From: a virus
Taxonomy: Duplodnaviria; Caudoviricetes
Virus record (IMG/VR): IMGVR_UViG_3300037067_004608
Coordinates: 59,840 to 123,839 of that record
Length of the DNA stretch: 64,000 bases
Strand: one strand, 5' to 3'
Below are positions 1,137-55,126 of this stretch, piece by piece (the stretch's first letter is position 1; the number at the start of each line of letters is the position of its first letter). Under the pieces are notes generated by a model. It searched no databases. It had not been told where the DNA came from and saw nothing but the letters and a program-made list of their open reading frames with translations. Position numbers and translations under genes: made by a program.

Positions 1137-1178
1137 GTGAATTCACGCGAATGCACCGCCTCTCGGATACTAGACGGG
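1137..1178 (+). repeat. Dispersed element copy 1 (GTGAATTCACGCGAATGCA-N15-TAGACGGG)
   Basis: Exact 19-bp core shared with five other intergenic sites. Confidence 0.9.
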
Positions 1179-1236
1179 TTTTAATACTCGTTTCCTAAGT
1201 AAAGAGGGTGCAATGACATAATAACAGGAGAAGATA

Positions 1237-1665
1237 ATGGTAGTGGACAGTAAACAATATGCCGTTGGTTTAACTAGGATATATTTCTATTGTTTCGAGT
1301 GTGGACCAGATATAGATGATCCTAGTGCACCAGGCAAGAAAAAGAAAGACACTCCTGGCCAGAGAGTTATGAAAGCTGAATGGAGAAAAGATTCCAGAGT
1401 ATATTGTCCACGCTGTAAAAGACTTATGATCTTTGATGGTGATGCATTATATGACAATGTAACAGGAAATGCTCATTTTTGGATAGAGAGACCAGATGGA
1501 CTCATAGTCCCAAGAGGTCACCTATTCAGATACGACCTAAAAGGTGAAGGATATGTTTCACCAAGATACATTTCACCAAAACCAGGAGATGGTGTAAACA
1601 TAGACTTTGTAAAAGAATATGATAGGCTGAATGGAGGAAACAGTGCAGTGCAACAGATGCCCTAA
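1237..1665 (+). CDS. Hypothetical Zn-ribbon protein
   Basis: CFEC...CPRC; AGGAG RBS. Confidence 0.7.
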   Translation: MVVDSKQYAVGLTRIYFYCFECGPDIDDPSAPGKKKKDTPGQRVMKAEWRKDSRVYCPRCKRLMIFDGDALYDNVTGNAHFWIERPDGLIVPRGHLFRYDLKGEGYVSPRYISPKPGDGVNIDFVKEYDRLNGGNSAVQQMP

Positions 1666-1915
1666 TACTTTCCCAAAAGATGCAGTCCACGATCTTCATC
1701 TTGATATAGAAGAAGGAGTCATGATACATGTTTCCTTCCCTATAAATCAAGTTGATGGAGAAGTAATTTCTCTGTGTAAAGATTGTCTACAGTCAACTTT
1801 CCAAGAGTTCATGGACAATCTTAATCCAGCACAAAAGCAATTCATGAGAGACCAAGCAAGAAAACAAGCGATTGATGTATCAATATTATCGCTTGTAGCA
1901 GATATGGAAGAATAA
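1631..1915 (+). CDS. Hypothetical Zn-finger protein
   Basis: CNRC...CKDC; fits operon tiling. Confidence 0.65.
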   Translation: MEETVQCNRCPNTFPKDAVHDLHLDIEEGVMIHVSFPINQVDGEVISLCKDCLQSTFQEFMDNLNPAQKQFMRDQARKQAIDVSILSLVADMEE

Positions 1916-1919
1916 AAGG

Positions 1920-1989
1920 GTGGGTAGGGTCAACTGACCATCGAGCGGATATTTGTCCCTCTAGGTTTATCAGTCAAGACCCTACCCAC
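1920..1989. other. Long stem-closed hairpin (possible leader or sRNA)
   Basis: 12-bp arms GTGGGTAGGGTC/GACCCTACCCAC with inner ACTGA/TCAGT and GAG-GGA/TCC-CTC pairings. Confidence 0.6.
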
Positions 1990-2020
1990 ATATACCACCG
2001 ACCACACAAGGAGCAAATAA

Positions 2021-2743
2021 ATGTCTTTTGTAGAAGTCCCAATACTAAGAGGTTTCACAGAAGTTGAACCTCTATTCAACCTTTCTTCTAACATAGCATA
2101 CATTTGTGGAGGCTATGCTAGATATTGCTGTTCTCAAAACAAGAAAGTAACTCCTGCCCAAGATTGTGATGTTTTCCCAACAACTGAAACCTCATATGAA
2201 ACTCTCAAAGCTGCTCTTGTAGAAAAGATAGGCTTTGAGGTATCTTATGAAAATGGAGTCTGTCTCACTTTAAGAGTTCCAAAGAAAGTTCCTGACTCCA
2301 TGAGCCTCAGATGGAAACACTGCCCACAAATACAGCTTATCAAACCTGTTGTAGAAGGCAGGGTTGTCACAGTCGGTTCTATAGAAGATATACTAGGGAA
2401 CTTTGACTTCACGATAACAAGGGCTGCAATCATTCGACCTGACGCTTGTCTAGTAGATGAAAACTTCATTAAAGATGAAAGTAATCACCTTCTTAGACTT
2501 GAAACAATCCACTGTCCGATCTCATCTTTGCTTAGGTGTATAAAGTATGGTAGAAAAGGTTATTGGATGAGACCTTCAGAAGCTCTCAATTTATTCCTTG
2601 ATTGGGATAATAGAGGTCAGAAGTATAAAGATGAAATCATAGAGTTGTTCAAAACATCTATGATGAAAGACGATCAAGGAAAACAAATAAAGATGGAGCA
2701 GCAAGAAATTGATCGTCTTGAAACTATGCTTAGGAGAGACTAA
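2021..2743 (+). CDS. Nucleotidyltransferase (CCA/poly(A)-polymerase head-like)
   Basis: YICGGYAR...DCDVF...FDFTITRA motif pattern; AAGGAG RBS. Confidence 0.7.
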   Translation: MSFVEVPILRGFTEVEPLFNLSSNIAYICGGYARYCCSQNKKVTPAQDCDVFPTTETSYETLKAALVEKIGFEVSYENGVCLTLRVPKKVPDSMSLRWKHCPQIQLIKPVVEGRVVTVGSIEDILGNFDFTITRAAIIRPDACLVDENFIKDESNHLLRLETIHCPISSLLRCIKYGRKGYWMRPSEALNLFLDWDNRGQKYKDEIIELFKTSMMKDDQGKQIKMEQQEIDRLETMLRRD

Positions 2744-3120
2744 TGAATCACGAAGATCAAGGATCAGGATATGATCCTAAAGCATGTGGTTACGAACTTC
2801 AAGGAAGAAAATCCAAACCTAATTTTCAGATTAGACATTCTGAACTTGGTATCTTTCAAGGTCAATGTATGGGAATGGGATTCTGGCACCCAACCTCTGA
2901 TATGCCTGAGCAGGGTCTTGCTAGATACTTAACAATAGAAGATGCTCAAAGAGATATAGACTTCATGTGTTCAGATGCTTGTTCTGACCCGGGCACATAT
3001 AGAGGTAAGCTATCAATAGAACCATATGATGAGTGCCTCAACGACCTATGTGCAGAGCATATGAAAAAGCTAAAAGAAGCTGGACTTACAGAATGCGAGG
3101 TTATCAATGAAACTCACTAA
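2743..3120 (+). CDS. Hypothetical protein
   Basis: TAATG coupling to upstream gene. Confidence 0.6.
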   Translation: MNHEDQGSGYDPKACGYELQGRKSKPNFQIRHSELGIFQGQCMGMGFWHPTSDMPEQGLARYLTIEDAQRDIDFMCSDACSDPGTYRGKLSIEPYDECLNDLCAEHMKKLKEAGLTECEVINETH

Positions 3121-3565
3121 AAAAATAGAAGCACACACTTGGAGAGAGATTCTAGCAGCAGCAGATATAGGAGATTCAGAAATAATCTGCGACAAATGCC
3201 ACGAACCAATTCTCTGTGAGAAAGGTGAATTTCCTGGCGTCATTATACTAGGGAATATTTATGCTGCAAATAAAGATTTTGCTCATAATTTATGTGGGAT
3301 AATTGGCAACAACTTCCCACACTGGTCTGATGATGGGCAGCCAGAAGTGACTGTTGAAACACTTGGCACTGAATTTAAGTTATCTTGGCTAGAAGTAAAA
3401 GCCAATGCTTATCATGTCACATGTCTAACAGAACTTCTTATGGAACCATTCAATGAAGAATATCCACCTTGTCCACAAAATTGTGGAGGAAGAATGATAA
3501 TGTCTGGTGACCATATTCATCACCACTGCAATAAGTGTGGATATGACAAAAGAATGGAGGATTAA
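3107..3565 (+). CDS. Hypothetical Cys-rich protein
   Basis: Several CxxC pairs; GAGG RBS. Confidence 0.6.
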   Translation: MKLTKKIEAHTWREILAAADIGDSEIICDKCHEPILCEKGEFPGVIILGNIYAANKDFAHNLCGIIGNNFPHWSDDGQPEVTVETLGTEFKLSWLEVKANAYHVTCLTELLMEPFNEEYPPCPQNCGGRMIMSGDHIHHHCNKCGYDKRMED

Positions 3566-3566
3566 C

Positions 3567-4037
3567 ATGGGAGTAACATTTAACTTTAGCACAGCATTCA
3601 AAAATTTTGATTTCAAGAAGTGTATAGAAATGTATGGACTCAAAATACGAGTTGCTGTGCCAATAATGAATCCAGGTCTAATGGAAGTCCTTAGCCGTTC
3701 ACATCTAACACAACTAGATGTTATAGATATATTTCACGAGAACCATCCTAAACTTGGTCCAAACATGGGATTTATATTCCCAGAAAGATTCCTTACTCCG
3801 CCACAGAGAAGAAGATTCATACAAGCTATTGTTTCTCACCCACAGACAAAAATAGGTAATCTAAAATCAGTCGATATAATAACTCACGACGATTTTATTC
3901 TTGTAGATTGTATACCTCAAATAGTTAGAATAATAAGATTCACAGAAGATGGATTCTACAAGAATGCTGAGAGGATGCCTATATCACCTTTTGCAGCAAA
4001 TAGAGATCAAATATATAGTGCTATATGGCAATCGTGA
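3567..4037 (+). CDS. Hypothetical protein (weak resemblance to ABC-ATPase C-terminal half)
   Basis: ATG 3567 after GGAGG; FPERFLTP...IITHDDF resembles EPExxLHP...ITTHS; no Walker A. Confidence 0.55.
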   Translation: MGVTFNFSTAFKNFDFKKCIEMYGLKIRVAVPIMNPGLMEVLSRSHLTQLDVIDIFHENHPKLGPNMGFIFPERFLTPPQRRRFIQAIVSHPQTKIGNLKSVDIITHDDFILVDCIPQIVRIIRFTEDGFYKNAERMPISPFAANRDQIYSAIWQS

Positions 4038-4044
4038 CTGAGAG

Positions 4045-4170
4045 TCAGCGGTTCTTTCGTCTGCTCTCGTGTGACATCTTCCTTTTTGCTTTGTCCTTGC
4101 TATAGTTCCTTTGTTTCTTTGATCCTGTGTGCTTTGTTCCACGAGAAAAGATATTGAACATTCCAGCCAT
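4045..4170 (-). CDS. Small basic protein, 41 aa (not in ORF track)
   Basis: AAGGAGCAAATA-ATG, nearly identical to the RBS of ORF 2021; MAGMFNIFSRGTKHTGSKKQRNYSKDKAKRKMSHESRRKNR. Confidence 0.65.
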   Translation of the reverse strand: MAGMFNIFSRGTKHTGSKKQRNYSKDKAKRKMSHESRRKNR

Positions 4171-4416
4171 TATTTGCTCCTTTGTTCTGTTGAATCTGCG
4201 TTAATGTGTCTCAGTCGCCTCCCTCGATTACACACTACGTGTGTAATTCGCGCGCGCGAATGTGACGGCCCTAAGATACAATCAAGGAAATATGTAAAGA
4301 GGAATAAGATAGGATTTACTATAGGGAACACCCCAGCACCTCACCCCCTACCCCCTATCCTCTCCCCTTTATACTCGATTCGATACCGTGCAGACGGTCG
4401 GAAAGGATGGATCATT

Positions 4417-4689
4417 ATGGAAAAGAGTTATCTGATTACTCTCAGCATATGTGCGCTCTTTATTATAGCATTATCAATTGTGATTGCTATATCAAGGAAC
4501 CGTATGCTATTTAGACGAGAAGTTGATATATACTTCAATTACATATATGACCTATGGAGCAATGGTGTTCCACAATCTCAGTGGAGAAAACCTCTGCCAA
4601 CTTGCTTAGGTCTTGGATATGGAGAAAAGCAAATAAGAGAAGCTGCAATCAAAAGATTGAGAGAGGTGACAAATGAGAACATTAGATGA
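4417..4689 (+). CDS. Hypothetical membrane protein
   Basis: Likely start MEKSYLIT after AAGGA; N-terminal TM helix. Confidence 0.6.
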   Translation: MEKSYLITLSICALFIIALSIVIAISRNRMLFRREVDIYFNYIYDLWSNGVPQSQWRKPLPTCLGLGYGEKQIREAAIKRLREVTNENIR

Positions 4690-4936
4690 CACTAAAGATG
4701 AGACTATAAACGGAGTTGAAGTCTCAGTATCACTTATCCCAGTCAAAGGGAATAGAACAGAAGTGAGGCTATCAGGATATAAGTTTGGCGAACATAGAGG
4801 ATACATCTGCCGAAAGATTATGAAAGAAGAATCAATTGGCTCTATACTTGCTGGCTTCAAAAAGAAGTTGGAAGTTGATGTTCAGACTTGTCAGGCTATG
4901 ATAGAATATATTGAGAGGAAAGAGAAAGATGGATAA
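4673..4936 (+). CDS. Hypothetical protein
   Basis: GAGGTG RBS; operon tiling. Confidence 0.6.
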   Translation: MRTLDDTKDETINGVEVSVSLIPVKGNRTEVRLSGYKFGEHRGYICRKIMKEESIGSILAGFKKKLEVDVQTCQAMIEYIERKEKDG

Positions 4937-5288
4937 GAGACTGCTTGCAAAACAATTGTTTCAAAAAGCAAGAGAGATTCACTATCTAAATACAGATATA
5001 TCTAACATGCTTGATGAAGTGGTAACACCAGGATCAGAGCTTCACCTACTTTTGATAGAGGTAGCTCAGCATAAGATCGGAGATTCACAAAAGATAAAGA
5101 CAGCTGGTATGAATAACCTACCAGATGATGATGATACTAGCATGACTCTTCTTAAGAAACTGGAAGAGTTTGGCTTTGTAGTAGAGTTCTACGATGATGG
5201 AGACCACCGTATAGACCTTCTCAGATTTAGGATTCCAGAGAAGGAAGAAGCTACAACTCTATGCCAATTAGAACTGGAGAATATGTAA
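4929..5288 (+). CDS. Hypothetical protein
   Basis: Overlapping start and stop with neighbours. Confidence 0.6.
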   Translation: MDKRLLAKQLFQKAREIHYLNTDISNMLDEVVTPGSELHLLLIEVAQHKIGDSQKIKTAGMNNLPDDDDTSMTLLKKLEEFGFVVEFYDDGDHRIDLLRFRIPEKEEATTLCQLELENM

Positions 5289-5506
5289 TGGGATTCACAA
5301 CTACATTTAGAGATCAGAGAGAAAGCAAGTCTGTCATCCTAGATATTCGTGATAACGGAATACTTGTAAAAACTGCATTTGGTGATAGCAGAGAAATTGC
5401 TCTTGCCAGAGCGATTGGAGAACTAGAAGAACAAGTCGAGCGTGGAAAGAAAGCAGCAGAAACAGTTAGGTTTCTTAAAACTGTAGATCCAAACTCTGAT
5501 AAGTAA
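5288..5506 (+). CDS. Hypothetical protein
   Basis: TAATG coupling, GGAG RBS. Confidence 0.6.
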   Translation: MGFTTTFRDQRESKSVILDIRDNGILVKTAFGDSREIALARAIGELEEQVERGKKAAETVRFLKTVDPNSDK

Positions 5507-5542
5507 ATAGACATAGCAACCAAGCAATCCTCCTTACCCCGT

Positions 5543-5570
5543 TTGCCAGAGTAGCCGGAAGGCGTATAGA
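5543..5570 (+). promoter_or_regulatory. Sigma70-like promoter of replication operon
   Basis: TTGCCA-N16-TATAGA upstream of the replication genes. Confidence 0.5.
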
Positions 5571-5610
5571 TAAGCGGGAACGACGTTCGGAAGTGATTTT
5601 GGTTTCAAGT

Positions 5611-5675
5611 ATCCTGCCTGAAAGTGCTCTCCGCTGCCATCAACTTCGGACGCTTTCCCAGCTTTCAGGCAGGAT
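5611..5675. other. Stem-closed hairpin in leader of replication operon
   Basis: Perfect 14-bp arms ATCCTGCCTGAAAG/CTTTCAGGCAGGAT. Confidence 0.6.
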
Positions 5676-5697
5676 TTTCTTTATCTTGGAGACAACC

Positions 5698-6159
5698 ATG
5701 ACTGCGCACTCATTTGAAGAAGATATTTTTGGAGAAGGATATGTCTCTCCAAGGACTCAGCAAAAGAAGCCAAAAAATGATCTTATAAATACATGGAAAC
5801 ATATCTACCTTAAAGTTTATGAGGTAGAGTTTGATAGGATGAGCGACCCTAGCCTTTTTGTTGCCTGCACCGACCTAGCCCGCTTCTGTAAAACACACAA
5901 CCTCGATATAGAAGAATACGTAACTTGGGCAATGTCATCATTTGACGTATTCAGTCCCCGAAGAATAACAACTGAGAAGTTCCTCTCTGCGTTCCTGAGC
6001 AGCCGAGTCCCTGTTGATGCATCAGGAGGCTACTTCATCATAGAAACAGGAGAAGTAGTCCCTATGGTTTTCCAGGAAAACGGTCAAGTAGCTCTTGAAC
6101 TACCTTCAGACGGCCAGGTCTTTGTAGATGGTAAGCTTGTCCATGCCAAAAGGGTGTGA
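5698..6159 (+). CDS. Hypothetical protein, positional replication-initiator candidate
   Basis: ATG after GGAG; first gene before helicase loader and helicase. Confidence 0.55.
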   Translation: MTAHSFEEDIFGEGYVSPRTQQKKPKNDLINTWKHIYLKVYEVEFDRMSDPSLFVACTDLARFCKTHNLDIEEYVTWAMSSFDVFSPRRITTEKFLSAFLSSRVPVDASGGYFIIETGEVVPMVFQENGQVALELPSDGQVFVDGKLVHAKRV

Positions 6160-6776
6160 CGAGCATGGGAAGTCTTGAATACGATTTAGTAGAAGAACTA
6201 AAGGCCAAAAACGCTCCTCCAAGGGATAGAGCTTACGCAGCTGCTAACATCCCTCAAGAGTTTTGGGATATAACCCGAAACGATATAGAAGTAACTCAAA
6301 AGAACAAACCTGTATATGATTTTGTCACAAGCTATGTTGACAACTTGCATACCAGGATTAAAGAGGGAAAAGGTTTAACACTAATTGACGTAGCAAAGTC
6401 TGGAAAGACATTATTTGGCTGCGCAATAATAAAGTCAGCTGCTATAGACCCAGCAACTCTGAGACGCGAATATAGAATACATAGAGTCAACTATGATACT
6501 ATCATAGAAGATTTCTCTCATATTCGCAATGAGCAAGATACTTATATGCAATTGAGGAATAGTTTAGCCAGAGATGATATTCTATTTATAGATAGTATAT
6601 CATACACTAGCCCTCCAGGTATTTTGCTATCAATAGCAAGAACAAGAAGAGACTTTAGAAAGTCAACAATACTGGCTACTTCTCTTGCTCCAATTCAATT
6701 AGAGCAAGCAAGATCAAGAGAGTTGATAGATATATTCAAAGATGTAAATGATCAATATTCGGTGAGCAGGAAGTGA
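6156..6776 (+). CDS. DnaC/IstB-like helicase loader (AAA+)
   Basis: ANIPQEF N-terminus, GKGLTL..KSGKT Walker A, ILFIDS Walker B, TILATSL; precedes DnaB. Confidence 0.8.
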   Translation: MTSMGSLEYDLVEELKAKNAPPRDRAYAAANIPQEFWDITRNDIEVTQKNKPVYDFVTSYVDNLHTRIKEGKGLTLIDVAKSGKTLFGCAIIKSAAIDPATLRREYRIHRVNYDTIIEDFSHIRNEQDTYMQLRNSLARDDILFIDSISYTSPPGILLSIARTRRDFRKSTILATSLAPIQLEQARSRELIDIFKDVNDQYSVSRK

Positions 6777-8212
6777 TCGAACTATCAGATGTTCAGCTTG
6801 AGAGACAATTAGTTAGTTCTATGTTCCATGATGAACGAGTTCTAACTGATCTCATAGTGCCTTGGGAATCTAAAAGAGGGAAAGACTGGTTCACTCAGAC
6901 AGAGCTTAGATGGATAGCTGTAAAGGTAATGAGAAATTACAGGACTTACGGTTGTATTCCATCTAAACAACTGCTGCTATCAGCTTTGCGAGATGAGACT
7001 GCTAAAGCAGGAAGAGAAGAAGAAGCAAGAGAAGCTATACATGAACAATATGACATTCTTATAGATAGACTTATTCAAGGAGAATCGTCATCAAGAGAAG
7101 TATGTTCAGCAATCTCTGATCGTCTCATAAAGCTGCTAACAAATAGAGAAATTGCAAACTCTGGAGAAAAGTTTGCATCTTTGCTTGAATCAGGAGATAT
7201 TGAAGCAGGATATAATGATCTAAAATCTCACATTCTAGCTATTGATGAACTTAAAGCTCCAAGCTCTATAATAACTGGAGATATATTCGATCTTGAAGAA
7301 GAGATTGAATATATCAGAAGGCGACGAGAAAATCCTGAATTATTCAAGGGTATACCAACTGGCATTTCAGTTTTTGATAATGAAACTCAAGGTATACACA
7401 ATGGAGAAACAGGATTTATTGTTGGACCATCTGGTAGAGGAAAGACAACTCTCGCATGCGAGATAGGATATAATGGACTTAGAGCAGGTTTTAATGTATT
7501 ACAGTTTACAATAGAATCTGCTCTTCAGCTAATAAAGTTCAAATACTATGCTCGCATATCACAGATACCATATAACTATTTCAAATTTGCAGCACCTGGA
7601 GAACCAGACAATGATTGGATGGAAGAATGGCTTGCATCCATGGGTCGTCTTGGAGAAAAGATTGATTCAAGACTAAAGATTGTTGATATACCAGAAGGCT
7701 GCACTCCTTCTCTCATAGAAGATATATGTATGCACAGATTCGGGAGTTGGAGACCTGATTTAGTTATAATAGATCATCAAGGTTTGCTTAATCCCGATGC
7801 TGGTCAGATGGGGAAAGGCAAATTAGGATGGGATACACAGGGAGAGATTTCTCAAACACTTATGGGCAAAGCCCGTATGATGAGAAACTCAAAAGGTGAA
7901 AGAGGAATTGGATTATGGGTTCTTGCCCAAGGTCATCCTTCTCTGCTGAAACGCAAAGCTGAAGACATATCAGTAGCAGATGTTGGACTTAGTTATCTAA
8001 TTGCTCAACCTGCTCATTATATTATACATATAATACGTGATGATATAATGGCTGCAAATGACGAGGCAATTTTGAAACTAACAAAAGTTAGAGATGGTAG
8101 AGATGGTCTAATAGCTTATGTCAAGACTAACTTTGCTACTTCTACATTTATAGCACGAGAAGAAGCATCAGGAACTATGGCAGAAGTCCAAGAAAGTAGA
8201 GTTCTGTTCTAG
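6773..8212 (+). CDS. dnaB: Replicative DNA helicase, DnaB-like
   Basis: GIPTG..FD, GPSGRGKT Walker A, FTIE, VIIDH, KVRDG. Confidence 0.92.
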   Translation: MIELSDVQLERQLVSSMFHDERVLTDLIVPWESKRGKDWFTQTELRWIAVKVMRNYRTYGCIPSKQLLLSALRDETAKAGREEEAREAIHEQYDILIDRLIQGESSSREVCSAISDRLIKLLTNREIANSGEKFASLLESGDIEAGYNDLKSHILAIDELKAPSSIITGDIFDLEEEIEYIRRRRENPELFKGIPTGISVFDNETQGIHNGETGFIVGPSGRGKTTLACEIGYNGLRAGFNVLQFTIESALQLIKFKYYARISQIPYNYFKFAAPGEPDNDWMEEWLASMGRLGEKIDSRLKIVDIPEGCTPSLIEDICMHRFGSWRPDLVIIDHQGLLNPDAGQMGKGKLGWDTQGEISQTLMGKARMMRNSKGERGIGLWVLAQGHPSLLKRKAEDISVADVGLSYLIAQPAHYIIHIIRDDIMAANDEAILKLTKVRDGRDGLIAYVKTNFATSTFIAREEASGTMAEVQESRVLF

Positions 8213-8221
8213 GAGATAGCA

Positions 8222-8422
8222 ATGAACTTTAATTTTACACCAAATAACACAATGGATGTTGTTAGATACCTTATGTCTGAATATGATGTAACAGAAGCTG
8301 AAGGCGCTAGACTTGTTGAGACATATAACTACATCTATTCAGAAGGTGTTGATTGCGGTAGTTTTGTATACTACATAGGTGATGAGATAGCAAAGGCAGA
8401 TATGATCAAGAAAAAGTCGTAG
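8222..8422 (+). CDS. Hypothetical protein
   Basis: AGGAG RBS. Confidence 0.6.
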   Translation: MNFNFTPNNTMDVVRYLMSEYDVTEAEGARLVETYNYIYSEGVDCGSFVYYIGDEIAKADMIKKKS

Positions 8423-8434
8423 TGAGGTGATAAT

Positions 8435-9087
8435 GTGGAGCACTCATTTGAGGATTTTAACATAATAACTCCTGATCCTCATCTCTTGCTCCATAGTAAT
8501 ATACCAAAGCCATTACACGAGGTAAATCCAAGAACTATTAAAGGAAGGAATTGGTGGGACGAGCAGAGAAGGAGAATATATAGCGAGCAGGGTGACCGTT
8601 GTGCAGCTTGTGGAGTTCATAAGAGTCAAGCCAAAGGCAAGAAGAAATGGCTTGAGTGCCATGAAATCTATGAGATAGATTGGAAACGTGGAACAGCAAA
8701 GTTCATAAAGTTAATTGCTCTGTGTCCATATTGTCATATGTTTATTCACAATGGCAGAATGCAGGCACTTTATGATCAAGGAGAAATAAGCACTAGACAA
8801 ACTTTGCTGTTATCAAACATGGAACAGAACTTCTCGATAAAGCTGGTATTAGAAGTCAGTGGGAGCATAGGCATGATGCTTGTAATTATTCTCCAAATTG
8901 GAATAAATGGAGACTAATATTTGAAGGAAAGAAATATAAACCAAAGTTCAAATCATATGATGAATGGCTTAAACACTTTGGATATAAAATAGATATGACA
9001 CCAAAGGCAAGTCCATTCTTCAATAATGCAAGAATATCTGATGTTCTTGATGAATATGATACATACGAAGAACTTTTTGGAAACTAG
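8435..9087 (+). pseudogene. HNH endonuclease with an internal frameshift near 8795-8805
   Basis: CAAC..LECHE..LCPYCH..HNG HNH core; the -1 frame from ~8800 stays open to TAG 9087 and fills the gap before ORF 9096. Confidence 0.7.
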
Positions 9088-9095
9088 GAGATAAG

Positions 9096-9323
9096 ATGCC
9101 GATATACGAGTTCTATTGTGTAAATTCAGGATGTCCTGGATTCAATTCTATTATAGAAGAAACCCAGAGAATGAATGATGAGCACAAAGCACAATGCCAA
9201 TTCTGTGGTGGAGATATGAAAAGGAAGTTTGGGAACTTCATAGATCAATATAAAGGTGAAGGATTTACCAGATCAGCAGATGCGAAAGAGGAAGTTGATG
9301 TGTGGAAATCAAAAGGAGAATGA
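9096..9323 (+). CDS. FmdB-family zinc-ribbon protein
   Basis: MPIYEFYC...C..CGG.MKR...YKGEGF signature. Confidence 0.85.
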   Translation: MPIYEFYCVNSGCPGFNSIIEETQRMNDEHKAQCQFCGGDMKRKFGNFIDQYKGEGFTRSADAKEEVDVWKSKGE

Positions 9324-9564
9324 GTGCGAACAAGAAGTTTGTGAGTTCTGTCTTTATTATACTATTGAAGAAAAGAAATGTGATAATAGAGATGAGTCAC
9401 CAATAGACCCTGATGACAGCTGTGAGATGATCATCAGTATGAGATGTACAACATGTAAACAGAAACGTGGCGAGCCTAGAATAGACAATGGTATAAAAGC
9501 AGGAGTTCATTGTGATGAGTGTTGGAATAAAATGTTAATAGACTGTAGAAAGAGAAGCTGGTAA
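9256..9564 (+). CDS. Hypothetical Cys-rich protein (start uncertain)
   Basis: Multiple CxxC; TAATG coupling to primase. Confidence 0.55.
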   Translation: MKDLPDQQMRKRKLMCGNQKENECEQEVCEFCLYYTIEEKKCDNRDESPIDPDDSCEMIISMRCTTCKQKRGEPRIDNGIKAGVHCDECWNKMLIDCRKRSW

Positions 9565-10616
9565 TGGCAAGAATAAAGGTTAAAGATCAGCATATTGATA
9601 TTGATCTTATGCAGTTGATGACTGATTATGGCATCAAAGGCAAGAAGATCGGTAATGAGTATGTTGCTTTTTGCCCTTTCCATGATGATAATTCTCCAAG
9701 TTGGTCTCTAAAGCTCGAAGGAGATAGAGCTGGTCTATGGCATTGTATGTCCTCTAGTTGTGAGTTAAAAGGAAATATAATAACACTCATAACTATGATG
9801 GAAAATTGCGGTTATAAAGAAGCAATTGCATCACTAACTGCTATAGAATCAGAAATAAATGTATACCAAAAAGATTTAGATTCACTAGTTAATAGACTGC
9901 TATCAATAGGAATAGACACTAGGCAGTCTAGCCTCAGATACAAAGTTCCACCAGACTGTAGTAAATCATACGTTCAAACCTTCTTCACAAATCCAAAAGA
10001 AAAAGGAGGTAGAGGATATTCAAAAGAAGAGTTTGAACAATTGATTGTTGATGATGTAGTATATTGTGAATCAGGTTTCTTCAGGAATAAGATCATAGTT
10101 CCAATCTACAATGAATCGGGCGAGCAAATCTCGTTTGTAGCAAGAACTCTTGATCCAAATGTCATGGAGAAATACAGATACCCAAAGGGCTGGATGAAGA
10201 ATCTCTTTGTTTACAGAATGGAAGCTAATCCATCTGAGCCTCCGGTTATATGTGAAGGAATATTTGATGGCAAGCATATACAAGGTATCTGGAATAGAAC
10301 TGCATTAGTAGTCTTTGGCAGTTCTCTTACTACAGCGCAAATAGCGTGGATAGCAAAAAGATACGACAAAGTAACATTTAGCCTTGACGGAGATAAGGCA
10401 GGAAGGAAGGGAACCTATCACGGTATAAAAAGCATGCAACAATTTGGAACTGATATCACTGTTATGGAGCTACCCGATGGCTTCGACCCTCCTGGAGTTT
10501 CAAGGACGGAAATGACTAATCTAGTATTGATGGCAGCAAAGGACTATGGAGAGAAATGGGAGAGAAGTCATATGTTGAGCAGATTCTCGATGACTGGCAT
10601 CCGAGGATCAAAATGA
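9564..10616 (+). CDS. dnaG: DNA primase (CHC2 Zn finger + TOPRIM)
   Basis: CPFHDDNSPS..WHC..C, SFVART, ICEGIFD, DGDKAG. Confidence 0.93.
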   Translation: MARIKVKDQHIDIDLMQLMTDYGIKGKKIGNEYVAFCPFHDDNSPSWSLKLEGDRAGLWHCMSSSCELKGNIITLITMMENCGYKEAIASLTAIESEINVYQKDLDSLVNRLLSIGIDTRQSSLRYKVPPDCSKSYVQTFFTNPKEKGGRGYSKEEFEQLIVDDVVYCESGFFRNKIIVPIYNESGEQISFVARTLDPNVMEKYRYPKGWMKNLFVYRMEANPSEPPVICEGIFDGKHIQGIWNRTALVVFGSSLTTAQIAWIAKRYDKVTFSLDGDKAGRKGTYHGIKSMQQFGTDITVMELPDGFDPPGVSRTEMTNLVLMAAKDYGEKWERSHMLSRFSMTGIRGSK

Positions 10617-11110
10617 TGATTGCCCGCTGCGGCTTTGGCGCAGAGGACAAAGAATTGTTAGAGAATGAGCTACTTGAGAAAGTAGTAACGTGTATCGAAG
10701 AATACGACACATCATACGATGCAAAGTTCGATACATTCACCAATAGATGTTTAATGAATCATATTCAGGTTCATCTAAGAGGTGAGAAAAGAAAGAAGCA
10801 CTCATTTATATCGAACTCAATGTCCTTGGATTACACAATTGATGAGGGAGATACAATCTCAGAACTTATCGCTGATCCAAAGGCAATATCTGCAGATACC
10901 ATTATTTTCAACATAACTTTGAGTGAAATAATGAATCTGCTTCCTGATGTTTGCAAAGAGATAGTAAGCCTTCTTTGCGCAGGTTTGAGTGAGTCAGAAA
11001 TAGCAAGAATTATTGGAGAAGAATCTCGACTAGTAAGAGGATATATCGAGGAATGTATACAGCCTTTAGTGGTAGAACTACTTCTTTGTGAGGAAAGAAA
11101 TGACGGATAA
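10556..11110 (+). CDS. Phage sigma-70 family sigma factor
   Basis: YD...DAKFDTF region 2, SLD, region-4 HTH GLSESEIARIIG. Confidence 0.82.
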   Translation: MGEKSYVEQILDDWHPRIKMMIARCGFGAEDKELLENELLEKVVTCIEEYDTSYDAKFDTFTNRCLMNHIQVHLRGEKRKKHSFISNSMSLDYTIDEGDTISELIADPKAISADTIIFNITLSEIMNLLPDVCKEIVSLLCAGLSESEIARIIGEESRLVRGYIEECIQPLVVELLLCEERNDG

Positions 11111-13672: not shown

Positions 13673-13964
13673 GTTAGCCGAACGGTTCGAGAGAACCGTG
13701 TAGTTTGGTTAGCAGGAGAAGGAGTAAGCGAACTGCCGAAGGCCAAGGTTCTGGTTGCTAGGATGCCAGACTCCTGCGGGGAATGCTTGTAGGAAAGATC
13801 AAAGGCTTGACCAGAGATCGTAAGCACAGAGGCCCATGATAACCTTGTGTTATGTAGACTGGAGTTGTGCCCAGAGCGGTATTCCCTAGAGCCTAAGTTG
13901 TTGAAGTAAAAGCAGTAAGCAGCTTAGGTAGAAGGGGATTCTTTGGAAGCAAGGAATCCCCTTC
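13673..13964 (+). ncRNA. Unclassified highly structured RNA upstream of tmRNA
   Basis: No credible ORF; nested stems GTTAGCCGAAC/GTTTGGTTAGC, ACGGTTC/GAACCGT, GCAGGAG/CTCCTGC, GGGAATGC/GTATTCCC, GCCTAAGTTGTT/AGCAGCTTAGGT, and a 15-bp terminal hairpin; G-U pairs favour the + strand. Confidence 0.6.
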
Positions 13965-13987
13965 ATTGTTCTTTGATATTTTAATAT

Positions 13988-14430: not shown

Positions 14431-14444
14431 CCTTTTCAACAATT

Positions 14445-14545: not shown

Positions 14546-14571
14546 TTCTATGGCTTTTAATAGTCATAGAA

Positions 14572-15909: not shown

Positions 15910-15911
15910 AC

Positions 15912-15953
15912 CCCGTCTAACGATTGGAAGGCCCTGCAATCGCGTGAATTCAC
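15912..15953 (-). repeat. Dispersed element copy 2
   Basis: Reverse strand reads GTGAATTCACGCGATTGCA-N15-TAGACGGG. Confidence 0.9.
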
Positions 15954-28610: not shown

Positions 28611-28652
28611 GTGAATTCACGCGAATGCAATCGGTTCACGCGGTTAGACGGG
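28611..28652 (+). repeat. Dispersed element copy 3
   Basis: GTGAATTCACGCGAATGCA-N15-TAGACGGG; also shares upstream TTTTAAGC with copy 1. Confidence 0.9.
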
Positions 28653-39208: not shown

Positions 39209-39530
39209 CTTCACATGTCCATTCTATATGACTTGTGATGAGATATGTGACGTAGTATCAGATGATTTCCTATCATCATCTAAATTACTTGATGAGTATC
39301 AAGTAGCACTTATGAATGGAGAGAATCCTGATAGGCAATCATTTATAGATCGCTGTCCTGAAAGTGAGAGGCAAGACTTTGATGAGCTTCTTAAAGTTTC
39401 TGACTCTCTACATGTCTATTATAGCACACAAGTGAGCCAAGAAACTGTAGACAAAGCAATTGCAAGAATAAAAGAGATCAGAGACGCTAATAAGGTTAAT
39501 TCAGTAGAATCGGTAGGAAAACGAGAGTGA
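39189..39530 (+). CDS. Hypothetical protein
   Basis: GAGGA RBS; its TGA stop lies inside element copy 4. Confidence 0.6.
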   Translation: MSKTTNNFTCPFYMTCDEICDVVSDDFLSSSKLLDEYQVALMNGENPDRQSFIDRCPESERQDFDELLKVSDSLHVYYSTQVSQETVDKAIARIKEIRDANKVNSVESVGKRE

Positions 39531-39566
39531 ATTCACGCGATTGCAAGGGGTTTGCAATAAGACGAA
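39527..39566 (+). repeat. Dispersed element copy 4
   Basis: GTGAATTCACGCGATTGCA then degenerate AAGACGAA. Confidence 0.88.
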
Positions 39567-42999: not shown

Positions 43000-43056
43000 T
43001 GAATAGAAAATGAAAATAGCGTCTATTCCTCTTAAACCTAGAAAACGTATAAATAG

Positions 43057-43097
43057 GCGGCCTAACCGATAGAAGGGGTGCAATCGCGTGAATTCAC
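43057..43097 (-). repeat. Dispersed element copy 5 (contains perfect 16-bp palindrome CGCGTGAATTCACGCG)
   Basis: Reverse strand reads GTGAATTCACGCGATTGCA-N14-TAGGCCGC. Confidence 0.9.
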
Positions 43098-43152
43098 GCG
43101 TTAAAAGTGTATCCAAACGAGCTTAGAGGTAAGCGGGAGAGATCGGGAAACG

Positions 43153-43188
43153 AGAAAACCCTGGAGGGCATAATCTCCAGGGTTTTCT
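43153..43188. terminator. Bidirectional terminator between convergent arms
   Basis: AGAAAACCCTGGAG/CTCCAGGGTTTTCT with A and T tracts. Confidence 0.75.
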
Positions 43189-43906: not shown

Positions 43907-44320
43907 TTAACCTCCTTTCTGTATTCGTTCTAGCTCTTTAACACGAACTTCAAGTTTTTCTCTTTCTGACTCAAGGAAAGTGTTCTGTTTAGTGAGTCTG
44001 TTTATCTCTCTAGCTTGCTCCTCATTTTTACCTCGTAGCCTAGTAACATCTTCCTCAAGATCAAGTTTCTCTTTTCTGAGACGGTCCACATCGTTGCGAA
44101 GATCAGCAACTTCTTGGCGAAGGTCTTTTATTGTATCGTGCAGTTCAGCTCTAAAGTTAGATGTAGCATCATTAAACTCCTTCTGCCAATCTAGTTCTAA
44201 CTTCTTCTCATCAGTATCAGACTGCCTAGACGCTTTATATCTAACTATTGCAAAATTGAGGACTTGCGAGACGATTCCTCCGACAACTCCTCCAACAGCA
44301 ACCAATTCAGCAGCAGTCAT
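43907..44320 (-). CDS. TM-anchored coiled-coil protein (lysis-associated candidate)
   Basis: N-terminal TM plus long heptad repeat. Confidence 0.65.
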   Translation of the reverse strand: MTAAELVAVGGVVGGIVSQVLNFAIVRYKASRQSDTDEKKLELDWQKEFNDATSNFRAELHDTIKDLRQEVADLRNDVDRLRKEKLDLEEDVTRLRGKNEEQAREINRLTKQNTFLESEREKLEVRVKELERIQKGG

Positions 44321-44375
44321 AAACGGTCTCCAAAAATAAGCTATTATTATATACTACAAAACAGCACACCAGCAA

Positions 44376-44561
44376 TTACGTATTGCGAGGGAGTATTTGA
44401 CCAGTTAGAGGTCTTGCTGCACCACTAGTTACTCTAACACCAATATCAACTGTGCGTACTGTTTGTATCAAAAATGCATAGTTTAACTCTGCGCCAATCT
44501 TTCCTCTTGTGTATTTTGGTGTCTTATTTGCAGAATCATTACCGTCGCATTTATATGCCAC
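44376..44561 (-). CDS. Small tail-associated protein candidate
   Basis: Stop/start overlap; C-term RPLTGQILPR. Confidence 0.5.
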   Translation of the reverse strand: MAYKCDGNDSANKTPKYTRGKIGAELNYAFLIQTVRTVDIGVRVTSGAARPLTGQILPRNT

Positions 44562-52233: not shown

Positions 52234-53228
52234 TACAACCTCGACAAAGTTATTCTAACTGTTAAATCTAGCTGTTTTGTGTCGTCTTTTGCTATTACAG
52301 CATTGAAAGTGTGACGAGCCATCAAAACACTATTTGATGAATGGCATACCTCTCCTATATTACCATTTCCCTGATAACTCATAAATGAATAAAGACCATC
52401 CCTATAAAAGTCTGGAGGACCAGAGACTCCTGCACTAAACACAACAGATTCACTTGTCCCTAAATTACTTCCTTGGATTGCAGTCTGCGTTGGTGCAGGA
52501 TCAACATTACTTGTTCCAGCTGTTAAATATCGAGAAGAAGTATTCCACCACTCAGAACCAGTAGCTGTCGATCTTACTGCAGTTTGTAGTCCATCATTTA
52601 GAATTATTCCTTTGACGGTCCTTCCATCAAGAGTAACAGAATATGGAGTATCAGATGTTCTCTGTATAGTTGTTTTACATAGTACAGTGAGAATATCTGA
52701 TGATGTTTTTGTAACAGTTATTGGATTTCCAGCTTCATCCCTGAACAGGTTCCTGCTCCAAAGAACTCCTCCACTAGATGATTCACAAAGAGCAACTTCC
52801 TTTAAGTCACCATTACCTTCAGAAGTCCCCCATTGAGCACCAGCAATAAAATACGGAGCAGATGCAGTAGCAAAACTATATGTAGAAAGTGTAGAATTAT
52901 ATATCTTTCTTGAAATTTCAGCTCCCAAAGTTGTATCAGTTGTTGCTGGTGCTGTATTAGATGTTCCTATTGCAATATACTTAAACAATGTTGGAGCACT
53001 GTAATACATAAAGTTTGATGAAGACACAAGTCTCCTGTTCAGCCCTGCATCTAATATTGTATTCTTGTGCCATGGGAGATGTAGTTTTACCCTTCCTGTC
53101 TTAGCATCAGTCAGAGTAACTTGCCACTCTGACTTAAATCCTATACCGAAGTTAATGACAGGACGGTTATCTGGCAAGTACAGACCAGACCTTCGTCTGG
53201 TGAATTCACATTGTTGTTTGAAGTCCAT
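52233..53228 (-). CDS. Virion protein with internal duplication
   Basis: ILDAGL..IAIGTSNTAP..T and ILNDGL..LTAGTSNVDP..T halves. Confidence 0.65.
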   Translation of the reverse strand: MDFKQQCEFTRRRSGLYLPDNRPVINFGIGFKSEWQVTLTDAKTGRVKLHLPWHKNTILDAGLNRRLVSSSNFMYYSAPTLFKYIAIGTSNTAPATTDTTLGAEISRKIYNSTLSTYSFATASAPYFIAGAQWGTSEGNGDLKEVALCESSSGGVLWSRNLFRDEAGNPITVTKTSSDILTVLCKTTIQRTSDTPYSVTLDGRTVKGIILNDGLQTAVRSTATGSEWWNTSSRYLTAGTSNVDPAPTQTAIQGSNLGTSESVVFSAGVSGPPDFYRDGLYSFMSYQGNGNIGEVCHSSNSVLMARHTFNAVIAKDDTKQLDLTVRITLSRL

Positions 53229-54244
53229 GTTATTGCACTTATCTCCCCTTCTATATATAGAACAGGTTCACTTATTGTATAGACATCTCCACCTGCCCAA
53301 GTTATCTGGTTAATTTGCGACATAACTAGTAAAGTGTCAAATGTATCATATTCATTGTTAACTATCCATCCTATCATAGATAAATATAAATCTGTAGTAA
53401 GAACTTCATCAATTATATACTCAAGAATAGTTATCCATGATATATTAGAAATAGCATGTGATGGATAAAGAACTTCATTACTTGTTATAGACCTTGGCCA
53501 GTTATTGCTACGAACATAGTAAAGTCCATATCTTCCCTTAATTCTCTTTGATATACACAATACTATAGCCGCAGATTCCCATTCTTCAGTTCCACCAACT
53601 ACAAATGCATCATCAATATATAGCTCACCAGTAAGTCCTGTTATTACTATTGTGTTTTCTGTATCCCATACAGTAGTATAAGGAGGAGCACTTCTTGCTC
53701 TCCAGCATAGAACATCATCAGACCTCTTGTAAAATATAAGCAAATCCTGGTCTCTATCTGATAATACTACTGGACACCTTCCATTTGTTACCTTCTGTAT
53801 GAATGGAGTTACGACAATACCAATTAGTCTTTCATCATAAACCCAAACTTCAGAAGAAAGCTCAGTTGGCCAATATTCATATCCTATACAAATATTACCC
53901 TGAGCATCTATTGTTATAAAAGGGTTCCTTATTTTACCAGTGTGACTCTCTGGAACAAGAGAAACAGCCCAAGTAGATTCCCAATCAGAATCATCAGCAA
54001 GAGCAATCCCTGCTTTTAGTATACCATTTTCATCAACAAAAGTCCCATATATTCTTCCAGTAACAGGTGATGCTGCCATACGAGGTTGAGTTCTTATTAC
54101 AGCATCTGTTTTTTCAATGTATCCCTCATTTGTCTGACCAAGACTTTTATTGAAATGATATATCCTCTCATCATCAATAGGATTAGTGAACTTCACATTA
54201 TACCTCTTTGAGTATGATGACAGGAGTAAATCTAGGCTCAGCAA
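53141..54244 (-). CDS. Beta-propeller-like tail protein with C-terminal ~23-aa Trp repeats (start uncertain)
   Basis: Repeats ISNISW / LSMIGW / INQITW / ISAITW. Confidence 0.6.
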   Translation of the reverse strand: MLSLDLLLSSYSKRYNVKFTNPIDDERIYHFNKSLGQTNEGYIEKTDAVIRTQPRMAASPVTGRIYGTFVDENGILKAGIALADDSDWESTWAVSLVPESHTGKIRNPFITIDAQGNICIGYEYWPTELSSEVWVYDERLIGIVVTPFIQKVTNGRCPVVLSDRDQDLLIFYKRSDDVLCWRARSAPPYTTVWDTENTIVITGLTGELYIDDAFVVGGTEEWESAAIVLCISKRIKGRYGLYYVRSNNWPRSITSNEVLYPSHAISNISWITILEYIIDEVLTTDLYLSMIGWIVNNEYDTFDTLLVMSQINQITWAGGDVYTISEPVLYIEGEISAITWTSNNNVNSPDEGLVCTCQITVLSLTSV

Positions 54245-54851
54245 ATCTTTGGCCAGTTACAGGTCTTGGATCACAATTAAGAATTGCTACTTTTGGCCTC
54301 CAAACAAAATGCATAGCAACCTTATCGTTGTTATCTAACTCTGTGGTAAATGATATTTTCCCATCTTCATAATCTATTGTAAATCCTGTAGTGACAAGAG
54401 CATCATTTACCCACACTTTTGTCAGTGATGCATCATCATTAGACAGATTTCTATAAGGAGTGAAATAATCATAATAAGATGCATCTCCCTTTGGCCAGCA
54501 TTCAACAGCTCCAGAAGATGATGCCTTTACTGAATCGTATTTTGCATCAAATTGCCAAAGACGCAAGTATATAGTCTGTCCAAAATATCTTGTGAAGGTA
54601 TTAAGAATATCAACACCTTCTTTTTTCATCTTAGAATAAGCCAGCTGCATCTTATGATAGCGAATAAGTCTTGGATCACCATATTTCTTCCGGTATACAA
54701 CTTTATCTTCAAAGTTGTTAGTCTTGTATTCTGTATATTCTGGCTGTCCTTCAAGCAGTGTGAACTCAACAGGATTGTTTGATAAGTATTTATCAACTTC
54801 TGTAGCAGAATAATATGGATTAGATGAGAATATCCACGATGCTCTTGCCAT
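54198..54851 (-). CDS. Distal tail protein candidate (DUF2460-like)
   Basis: VWVND....FTIDYEDGKISF; follows tape measure. Confidence 0.6.
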   Translation of the reverse strand: MARASWIFSSNPYYSATEVDKYLSNNPVEFTLLEGQPEYTEYKTNNFEDKVVYRKKYGDPRLIRYHKMQLAYSKMKKEGVDILNTFTRYFGQTIYLRLWQFDAKYDSVKASSSGAVECWPKGDASYYDYFTPYRNLSNDDASLTKVWVNDALVTTGFTIDYEDGKISFTTELDNNDKVAMHFVWRPKVAILNCDPRPVTGQRFAEPRFTPVIILKEV

Positions 54852-54858
54852 ATCTTAC

Positions 54859-54987
54859 CTACCTTGTTCCTGAGTTTCTAACTGCTACTTTATATGTTGA
54901 GAGTTCACCTGGTGGAAGTTTCTTTTTCATCTTGCCACCGATAATAACTCTTGACTTCTGATTTACTATTACTACCTTCTTTTTCAC
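54859..54987 (-). CDS. Small basic protein, 42 aa (not in ORF track)
   Basis: AAGGAAGG RBS, GTG start, MKKKVVIVNQKSRVIIGGKMKKKLPPGELSTYKVAVRNSGTR. Confidence 0.45.
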   Translation of the reverse strand: MKKKVVIVNQKSRVIIGGKMKKKLPPGELSTYKVAVRNSGTR

Positions 54988-55086
54988 TATATAACCTTCC
55001 TTTTAGAAGAAGTAAACTATAATAGACGTATTCCACGTATCTAGGATAAGTGAATCTAATAGGATAGTATCTAATCCTAATAAGAA

Positions 55087-55126
55087 CCCGTCTAGGAATC
55101 TACGCTCTGCATTCGCGTGAATTCAC
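55087..55126 (-). repeat. Dispersed element copy 6
   Basis: Reverse strand reads GTGAATTCACGCGAATGCA-N13-TAGACGGG, abutting the tape-measure stop. Confidence 0.9.

Follow-up and report, generated by a model that had tools for sequence, protein, structure and literature searches.

The 64,000-nucleotide stretch of Caudoviricetes DNA analysed here (the window) carries six exact copies of an oriented 19-bp element, each of which may be the upstream recognition module of a ~120-bp transcription-control (promoter) cassette private to one phage clade; judging from sequence, we rate this reading at slightly below an even chance. The core, GTGAATTCACGCGAWTGCA, occurs without mismatch at 1137+, 15935-, 28611+, 39527+, 43079- and 55108-, the sites given in a first-pass annotation of the window, as against 0.02 occurrences expected by chance, and none of 100 shuffled sequences gave six. 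Successive copies are separated by 14.8, 12.7, 10.9, 3.55 and 12.0 kb. Scanning the whole 123.8-kb contig yields 13 copies that represent 12 unique sites in ~113 kb, and no other k-mer of the genome is nearly as over-represented as the 19-mer. It comprises a 10–14-bp palindrome centred on AATT and an asymmetric arm, GCGAWTGCA, and is also legible as a tandem pair of G-Y-G-A-A-T-K-C-A units at a 10-bp interval. In over 60 sites, 17 of the 19 positions are invariant; copies 1, 3 and 6 have A at position 15, and copies 2, 4 and 5 have T. Relevance of the EcoRI site as such was rejected: GAATTC is not avoided (27 copies, 14 within the motif), and many other 6-bp palindromes are absent.

A related phage with only 65–72% nucleotide identity carries 12 copies, 11 of them at matching map positions. 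Orthologous 19-mers are 97% identical, compared with 58–64% for their flanks and 71% for the segment from +35 to +55, and no degenerate copy with up to three mismatches was found in 575 kb of relatives. These results bear out the proposal of a genome-wide, oriented cis-acting element, one that is very strongly selected and keeps its position in related phages, and some sequence-specific factor almost certainly reads it. The first-pass annotation had allowed that the motif might be a scattered host repeat or be missing from relatives, and neither is the case. A host interspersed repeat (REP or uptake sequence) is ruled out by a search of 185,579 species genomes, which returned three single chance matches, all in unrelated sequence that lacks the flanking boxes of the phage element. 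Terminase-based scans for distant relatives with a co-evolving motif yielded close kin only, cultured phages offer nothing related to the phage DnaE at above 33% identity, and no account of the motif was found in the literature searched.

All six copies in the window sit at gene boundaries, and two touch stop codons. Copy 1 (family C, GTGAATTCACGCGAATGCA, 1137..1155, plus strand; orthologs at G001:83034+ and in L011) belongs to a cassette spanning ~1087-1206, with a GC-rich box, TAGACGGGT, at 1171-1179, an AT-rich box, TTTAATACT, at 1180-1188 and the ATG of the first gene at 1237 (+101). Copy 2 (family B, 15935..15953, minus strand, boxes at 15902-15919) lies between the TAA (15907-15909) of an 84-aa gene and the RBS and GTG (16004) of the next plus-strand gene. 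It is antisense to both neighbours and has no gene downstream in its own direction, and its orientation is kept at G001:101860- and in L009, L050, L051 and L099. Copy 3 (family J, 28611..28629, plus strand) is followed by boxes, TTAGACGGGTAAAAG, at 28644-28658 and by an RBS (GGAGGAGG) and an ATG at about +100 to +108. Positions 2-4 of copy 4 (family K, 39527..39545, plus strand) are overlapped by the TGA stop of ORF 39189-39530; a degenerate box, AAGACGAAT, follows at 39559-39567, and a long leader with TTCAC...ATGGA at 39600-39621 precedes a gene start at about +155. Copy 6 (family D, 55108..55126, minus strand) abuts the TAA of the 2044-aa tape-measure gene and is followed by TAGACGGGT at 55085-55093, a leader hairpin (TTCAC...GTGGA, ~55032-55054) and a GTG start at about +140; a paralogous second-strain copy lies at contig 2053-.

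Copy 5 (family F, 43079..43097, minus strand, degenerate box TTAGGCCGCCT at 43055-43065) occupies the convergent gap, as first described, and likewise has no gene downstream in its own direction. About 55 nt upstream of it, a canonical bidirectional intrinsic terminator (AAAA-CCCTGGAG...CTCCAGGG-TTTT; 43153..43188, minus strand, z = -4.6) ends the minus-strand arm. The orthologs of copy 5 are at G001:17686- and in L010, L075 and L105, and the terminator-then-site arrangement recurs in G001 and L010 with covarying stems, so that copy 5 and its orthologs stand 45–55 nt past a terminator. These copies therefore cannot depend on upstream transcripts, which favours an element that acts as DNA.

In the cassette, an A-tract (-9 to -5) precedes the 19-mer, and a variable GC-rich arm of 13–15 nt comes after it. 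Next is a GC-rich box, (T)AGACGGGT, whose distance is fixed, and then, at +43 to +51, an AT-rich box. Beyond these lie a leader hairpin, an RBS and the gene that heads a functional module. A box resembling AGACGGGT stands at +36 or +34, the two being 14 or 16 nt apart, in about 25 of 34 sites. The companion sequence noted earlier, TAGACGGG, indeed follows copies 1, 2 and 3 after 15 nt and copy 6 after 13 nt, with degenerate forms in copies 4 (AAGACGAA) and 5 (TAGGCCGC). Five of the six AGACGGG occurrences in the contig adjoin a 19-mer. The AT-rich box reads TTCTAATAC, CTAGAATAC or TTTTAC, and AT content reaches 80% at +43 to +47 and 72% at +46 to +50, compared with 34% in the adjoining GC-rich box. 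Ten of 12 sites are followed by an RBS and start codon (+74 to +155), and at 10 of the 12 unique sites the element points along the genes. The modules that begin after sites are terminase-portal-protease, tail genes, post-tape-measure tail genes, ligase, DnaB-primase-sigma and dUTPase-UvsX-SbcCD. The leader of the K site is kept although the upstream neighbour gene differs between genomes, which likewise favours action as DNA. Another site, E, adjoins a mobile HNH gene and a 9-kb cluster that is peculiar to this contig.

A bipartite promoter for a phage sigma factor was among the roles first suggested. It is the best fit among them, since two conserved boxes with a fixed spacing, followed by an AT-rich box, precede a gene at 10 of 12 sites; copies 2 and 5 do not conform. 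Since these two copies are conserved yet lack a downstream gene, a plain mRNA promoter is an incomplete explanation. The candidate reader is a phage sigma-70-family factor of 184 aa (10556..11110, plus strand; PHROG sigma families, ~4e-8). It matches TIGR02937 at 3.8e-9, below the curated cut-off, over residues 37-173 (model positions 33-163 of 165), shows weak likeness to SigH, SigK and SigE and weak Sigma70_r2 and r4_2 matches, and has regions 2 and 4, the -10 and -35 reading regions of a sigma factor. Other candidate binders (41492, 31340, 5593 and two paralogs with H1-like tails) gave no informative Pfam or NCBIfam matches. The lineage is almost devoid of recognisable regulators.

In the mechanism we propose, a phage-encoded protein would bind the 19-mer as duplex DNA, the sigma-70-family factor being the candidate, possibly together with a dimeric activator on the palindrome. 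The bound protein would place host RNA polymerase, the AT-rich box would melt, and transcription would start at about +47 to +57. Nearly every gene module, in either arm, would thereby have about one copy as a middle/late promoter belonging to the phage itself, and early genes would be left to promoters of host type in the divergent region (near 35 kb of the contig). Antisense or non-coding transcripts would arise from copies 2 and 5, and the hairpin-forming context in some families may also stabilise or weakly terminate read-through RNA. Private promoters would be needed because sigma-70-type promoters are not above chance in the window (69 versus 57.5 ± 7.6), no phage RNA polymerase was detected, and host-type promoters (TTGACT-17-TAAGAT, TTGACA) occur only at the divergent region. 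A housekeeping sigma-70 promoter was itself rejected for the sites, which have no TTGACA/TATAAT-like pair 16–18 bp apart in addition to this lack of a window-wide excess.

Phage promoters that use a sigma factor or activator (SPO1 gp28 and gp33-34, T4 MotA middle, phiEco32 gp36) are among the nearest parallels. They too are short, gene-oriented repeats upstream of modules, bipartite with fixed spacing and absent from the host, and the phage encodes a sigma-70-family factor. In contrast, the present element is far longer and stricter (19 bp, 17 invariant) and contains a perfect palindrome, its boxes match no published consensus that we found, two copies face no gene, and its surroundings are free of CA/TG. 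The boxes fit no sigma consensus that we can name: they have no consistent sigma-A-like -10 (TAnnnT), the AT-rich box often lacking A2 or T6 of the -10 (e.g. TCTAAT, TAATAC), and seem to show no consistent match to the ECF, SigH, SigB, SigF or SPO1 consensus sequences. Further points against a promoter are that the sites lie in both the replication and the structural arms, which is odd for a single temporal class, that the sigma gene lies 9.4 kb downstream of a site, and that the invariance is stricter than sigma-dependent promoters usually show.

Such invariance is more typical of single-subunit polymerase promoters, nucleases and recombinases. Promoters of the T7-group polymerases are similarly ~19–23 bp long, near-invariant, present in about a dozen copies per genome, located directly after upstream genes and oriented with transcription. 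Unlike the present element, T7 promoters are not palindromic, and no such polymerase was found here: PF00940 gave no match, in a search whose control was likewise empty everywhere, and no DxDGD-type candidate was found among the large ORFs, which encode the tape-measure protein, DnaE, SbcC, a helicase, the portal, a protease and a CBM-bearing tail protein.

The same all-or-none invariance, with no degenerate copies, would suit a DNA site that acts outside transcription, namely a nicking or HNH target, a replication or clamp-loading site, or a genome-organising site, whose orientation would follow replication from the divergent region to the convergent junction. We regard such a role as improbable. 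All sites except copy 2 do point from the divergent region (~35 kb) to the convergent junction (~103 kb), in agreement with the GC-skew switch, but this orientation is confounded with transcription. The sites are fairly evenly spaced (4–15 kb), copy 5 works without upstream transcription, and the phage encodes its own DnaB, primase, DnaE, SbcCD and at least one HNH endonuclease; however, the sole HNH gene recognised is mobile, of homing type, and lies at different places in the two genomes. A nicked site would leave localised single-strand interruptions of the kind known from T5, phiKMV and tf, and nick-site consensus sequences exist in other phages. Strict intergenic placement, fixed-distance boxes and a constant RBS distance would not be needed for any of these roles. 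The parS-like option raised at first is not supported by the profile search for ParB_N (PF02195), which found no match in the contig and detected the domain in 11 of 14 control genomes.

Nor do the sites sit well with stoperator-like roadblocks, at which a phage repressor would stop polymerase in one orientation and silence the genome module by module, a possibility from the first-pass annotation that we now consider very unlikely. Many asymmetric copies in short intergenic spaces near stop codons, oriented with transcription, are hallmarks of cluster-A mycobacteriophage stoperators. Those sites, however, are 13–14 bp long, vary among copies, have no fixed-distance companion boxes and belong to temperate phages with an immunity repressor, whereas the present element is invariant and boxed. 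The contig has no match to the tyrosine-integrase profile PF00589, and the gene content (DnaE, DnaB, primase, SbcCD, tmRNA) looks lytic. A roadblock would also be unneeded at copy 5, which follows a terminator.

The arms that flank the 19-mer are complementary and covarying in families H, A, C, I, J and D, which hints at an RNA or single-stranded-DNA form and counts against the promoter reading. The 19-mer could accordingly be a hairpin apex (GCGUG-AAUU-CACGC with an internal loop) in polycistronic RNA, read by a phage RNA-binding protein or nuclease as a regulated terminator or antiterminator target, a processing site like those of T7 RNase III, or a 3'-end stabiliser at module borders. We think this unlikely. 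Family H has 17 pairs (90.6% paired, three of them compensatory), 3 of 500 shuffles doing as well, and U-G wobbles fall on the sense strand; over all sites, cognate arms pair better than non-cognate arms (p ~0.0015; in a second comparison, 16.55 versus 15.61 ± 0.45). Many of the minimum-energy folds take the shape of a long hairpin tipped by AATT, and the element lies just past stop codons, co-directional with transcription. On the other hand, copy 5 and its orthologs follow a strong canonical terminator and copy 2 is antisense, and neither would be expected in sense transcripts; the position of copy 5 in particular weakens simple terminator and RNA-processing readings. Enclosing stems are missing in families E, F and K, and mismatches in the arms show no strand bias (G-T, i.e. 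G-U, 52 versus A-C 67), so a hairpin specific to sense RNA was rejected. An intrinsic terminator was also rejected: a consensus scan gave no excess, and the sites are no match for one; family H and a few others alone come close. There is no consistent U-tract (family D, for example, has none), the total stem is short for RNase III, and no Rfam family matches, tmRNA being the sole match in the window and nothing appearing at E<=1 around copies 1 and 4. An RNA role also leaves the fixed-distance downstream boxes unexplained.

T7 RNase III sites resemble the element as about ten co-oriented intergenic hairpins per genome with an internal loop, and differ from it in that its stems are short and not universal, with one copy past a terminator and one antisense. 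T4-type PeSL cassettes, the name reportedly denoting promoter-early stem-loop in work by Arbiol et al. in 2010, are also repeated intergenic stem-loop-then-promoter units at module borders with insertion differences; PeSL promoters are ordinary sigma-70 early promoters, whereas the present element has no sigma-70 consensus and an invariant apex.

Returning to the promoter cassette, one feature of it is not accounted for by a promoter. CA/TG steps are nearly missing from -50 to +70 around each copy, a zone of ~120 letters, with 7 observed and ~140 expected at +30 to +59. We know of no system that explains such a zone, and both it and the strict invariance are, to our knowledge, foreign to every promoter class. 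They suggest shaping beyond ordinary sigma recognition, perhaps by the context of DNA modification, by a stiffness imposed on the DNA or by a nucleoprotein complex. It is conceivable, if quite improbable, that the 19-mer is the centre of a ~120-bp landing pad purged of CA/TG in a phage whose DNA is hypermodified at TpG. Control regions would then be kept without modifiable sites, except that the 19-mer would hold four precisely placed TG/CA steps; these would be read by a factor of the phage itself, possibly in modified form, and promoters would fire only on the phage's own modified DNA. In a variant, transcription would be coupled to replication through the same pad, as a site-specific nick or clamp-loading enhancer. 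A subclass of phage T-dioxygenases with NTG preference is known (PMC13229309). Tet/JBP genes, sought in support of modification, were not found.

If the sites are the clade's private promoters, the 19-bp word and its two boxes would give the whole transcription map of an uncultured 113-kb lineage, and true promoters of this kind would provide a portable, highly specific promoter/factor pair. Some metagenome contig ends fall at sites, and these are probably assembly breaks rather than transcript ends.

The six copies of an oriented 19-bp element described in the first-pass annotation are confirmed in both coordinate and strand: GTGAATTCACGCGAWTGCA matches exactly at window positions 1137(+), 15935(-), 28611(+), 39527(+), 43079(-) and 55108(-) (copies 1 to 6), against 0.02 matches expected from shuffled sequence, three mismatches allowed included. 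Its account of a downstream TAGACGGG box, and of the gene-boundary positions, spacings and orientations of the copies, also held on re-check. The entire 123,839-bp IMG/VR phage contig, of which the window covers positions 59840-123839, carries 13 copies, one with TGTA in place of TGCA, and the 19-mer is the most over-represented word of the genome. Contig positions 1-10945 and 112937-123839 (window 53098-64000) are 83% identical across 10.9 kb, and the probable cause is a circular assembly that wrapped through a second, co-occurring strain, not a true terminal repeat. The unique genome comprises ~112.9 kb with 12 unique sites, the copies at contig 2053(-) and 114947(-) being one site in two strains, and its size agrees with that of a 113,031-bp relative. 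Its leftward arm, with genes from ~35 kb wrapping round to 103 kb, encodes terminase, portal, protease, tail genes and a 2044-aa tape-measure protein. The rightward arm, from 35.7 to 102.8 kb, encodes ligase, helicases, DnaB, primase, a sigma factor, a tmRNA (window 13988-14336, + strand; Rfam 141.8 bits; tag ANTDTLSSIAGRNADMEVMAA), split DnaE, dUTPase, UvsX and SbcCD. No DNA-level relative was found among cultured phages, and DnaE shares <33% identity with that of any cultured phage.

The relative (IMGVR_UViG_3300033889_000069, here G001) is collinear but permuted at 65-72% nucleotide identity and contains 12 copies of the 19-mer, nine exact and three differing at position 1. Eleven of these lie at the same gene junctions as in our contig, including copy 2, which is antisense to both neighboring genes, and copy 5, which sits in a convergent gap. 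Viral and metagenome scans returned ~45 further phage-type sites besides ~20 obvious chance matches. Across all sites, the 19-mer varies solely at position 1, where C or A rarely replaces G, and at position 15, which is A or T, and no copy with up to three other mismatches occurs in 575 kb of related DNA. Ortholog identity is 97% within the 19-mers, 71% from +35 to +55 and 58-64% in the flanks. The first-pass annotation had considered that the motif might be a known host repeat or absent from related phages; neither holds. A host repeat is rejected, as 185,579 species genomes yield three single matches, all chance occurrences in sequence that is unrelated and has none of the boxes flanking the element.

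In coordinates where the 19-mer's first G is position 1, each cassette carries an A-tract at -9 to -5 (74% AT) followed by xGxGC. Within positions 1-19, GTGAATTCAC forms a perfect palindrome, lengthened to GCGTGAATTCACGC in seven of the 13 contig copies; together with GCGAWTGCA it makes two G-Y-GAAT-K-CA units in tandem, 10 bp apart. The stretch at positions 20-34 is variable and GC-rich, ending mostly in TTTCA, TTGCA or TTCCA. There follows a GC-rich box, (T)AGACGGGT or (T)AAGACGAC, that begins at +36 in the majority of sites and at +34 in site families D, K and part of E (letters denote groups of sites; copies 1 to 6 belong to C, B, J, K, F and D, respectively). Five of the six AGACGGG occurrences in the contig adjoin a 19-mer, and the GC-rich box is therefore not an independent element. 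The AT-rich box at +43 to +50 (TTCTAATAC, CTAGAATAC, TTTTAC or TTATAC) is 72-80% AT and flanked by GC-richer stretches; the leader downstream of it contains a small hairpin, often with ACCTCC at its start, and a strong ribosome-binding site and start codon occur at +74 to +155 in 10 of 12 sites. A long-leader subclass (families D, E and K; 11 of 56 non-redundant sites) displays TTCAC-N10-14-(G/A)TGGA at exactly +73 or +74, seen at window 39600-39621 and 55032-55054. This motif repeats the palindrome's half-site words (ATTCAC, GTGGAAT) in reversed order. An odd site pair (contig 37103(+) and G001 59622(-)) combines a 19-mer, with TGTA in one and CTG in the other, with a partial copy, CGTGAATTCAG, 50-55 nt further on that can pair with its 19-mer over 12-13 bp; the two stand in opposite orientation, in a region without conserved ORFs.

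The best-supported reading, which we hold tentatively, takes the element for a promoter cassette specific to the phage. In it, the 19-mer would be the upstream module that a phage factor recognizes and binds in duplex form; the candidate is the phage sigma factor, perhaps joined by a dimeric activator at the palindrome. The promoter core would consist of the GC-rich and AT-rich boxes, with transcription predicted to start at about +47 to +57; a start at +47 would place the palindrome center at -41.5, a classical activator position. A 184-aa sigma-70-family protein containing regions 2 and 4 is encoded in the window (10556-11110), and no candidate for a phage RNA polymerase gene was seen among the large ORFs. 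A consensus scan detected no excess of housekeeping-type promoters in the window. Good examples, conserved in both genomes, lie at a divergent region near contig 35.6 kb (~35,560-35,620, outside the window) and near 58.0 kb in the relative (G001 ~57,910-57,990), with TTGTCT or TTGACT-17-TAAGAT and TTGACA; those in the contig open the rightward arm, and they are the likely early promoters. SPO1, T4, phiEco32 and T7 have private promoters, and the PeSL cassettes of T4-type phages couple a stem-loop to a promoter. The element appears alike in kind to both by analogy, and by sequence it falls outside all of these families, differing in its invariant, half-palindromic 19-bp word, its conserved copies without a gene and a 120-bp surround purged of CA/TG steps. 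A promoter does not explain the near-absolute invariance, the two gene-less copies or the CA/TG-free zone. On this reading, copies 2 and 5 would produce antisense or non-coding RNAs.

In several site families, the stretch ahead of the A-tract can pair with positions 20-27, and orthologs show covariation of these pairs, as in family H (GCCCTGCA/TGCAGGGC versus GGGCTG/CAGCCC) and family A (GGGC/GCCC versus GCCC/GGGC), and also in families C, I, J and D. Such arms would suit an RNA hairpin that a phage protein reads to bring about antitermination, processing or stabilization, an explanation we consider unlikely. The family H hairpin has 17 pairs; across five divergent sequences it is 90.6% paired and includes three compensatory pairs. 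Only 3 of 500 shuffles are as good, and slid controls are 19-46% paired. Over all sites, cognate arms outperform non-cognate arms with a modest signal (p ~0.0015), and a broader alignment test of the arms gives 16.55 versus 15.61 ± 0.45. The stem is missing in families E, F and K, and G-T and A-C arm mismatches are about equally common (52 versus 67), so neither strand is favored. The universal features are the 19-mer and the boxes at fixed distance; the hairpin is frequent without being obligatory.

A textbook bidirectional terminator (z ~-4.4), composed of an A-tract, a 12-15 bp GC stem of covarying sequence and a U-tract, precedes copy 5 and its two orthologs by 45-55 nt. Copy 5 thus cannot depend on RNA from upstream. 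The phage evidently uses ordinary terminators where needed, so the 19-mer element is something else. A stoperator-like roadblock is highly improbable. At least six divergent genomes have copy 2 in antisense orientation, with its boxes kept.

In 56 non-redundant sites, hardly any TG or CA occurs between -50 and +70 outside fixed places, namely within the 19-mer, around +27 to +29, near -18 and at +76. Expectations were derived from the base composition of each alignment column, and box conservation therefore cannot explain the depletion. From +30 to +59, 2 TG and 5 CA are seen against 64 and 76 expected; from -50 to -21, 29 and 47 against 97 and 94. CG and TA are raised in their place, and frequencies return to normal past +71. 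In the window, the zones span ~1087-1206, 15884-16003, 28561-28680, 39477-39596, 43028-43147 and 55057-55176, each centered on a 19-mer. CA/TG content is a normal 12-13% around chance 18-mer matches in other organisms; in this phage's intergenic segments it is 12.2% without a site versus 6.9% with one. The same rule governs ~500 bp of non-coding DNA beside a large non-coding RNA (contig 42,500-43,000), so it marks certain non-coding control DNA of this phage and is not confined to the element. The two strands are depleted alike, a symmetry that speaks for duplex DNA or completely paired hairpins and against an avoidance of start codons in one RNA. A phage thymine dioxygenase that depends on ParB shows a preference for NTG (PMC13229309). 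By analogy, a TpG-context modification could make TG/CA steps unfavorable in DNA to which proteins bind; in the contig, however, neither a Tet/JBP nor a ParB_N domain was detectable. That the rule links DNA modification context to promoter recognition, or marks a nick-based enhancer, is very unlikely; either would be new.

A DNA site with a non-transcriptional role, such as a nick, replication or organizing site, is distinctly unlikely. Neither a tyrosine integrase nor ParB was found. Site K keeps its long leader although its upstream neighbor differs between the two genomes, while site E has the same upstream gene in both and differing DNA downstream. In the contig, this DNA is a 9.3-kb block (13,800-23,100, outside the window), absent from the relative, that encodes two glycosyltransferase-like proteins and one methyltransferase-like protein and resembles an accessory module that was inserted at the element border. 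In the relative, site E is directly followed by a gene for a 155-aa HNH_3 + HTH homing-type endonuclease (G001 44020-44484, - strand); its contig counterpart (42028-42495, - strand, outside the window) lies 19 kb from site E behind the CA/TG-free tract, and the gene looks mobile. Separately, some 6-bp palindromes are extremely avoided in the contig (TCTAGA, 0 versus 35 expected; GAGCTC, 0 versus 20; CTCGAG, 0 versus 14, and 0 versus 44 in G001; TTCGAA, 0 versus 14, and 0 versus 40 in G001). This fits strong restriction pressure, and the sets of avoided palindromes differ between the two genomes.
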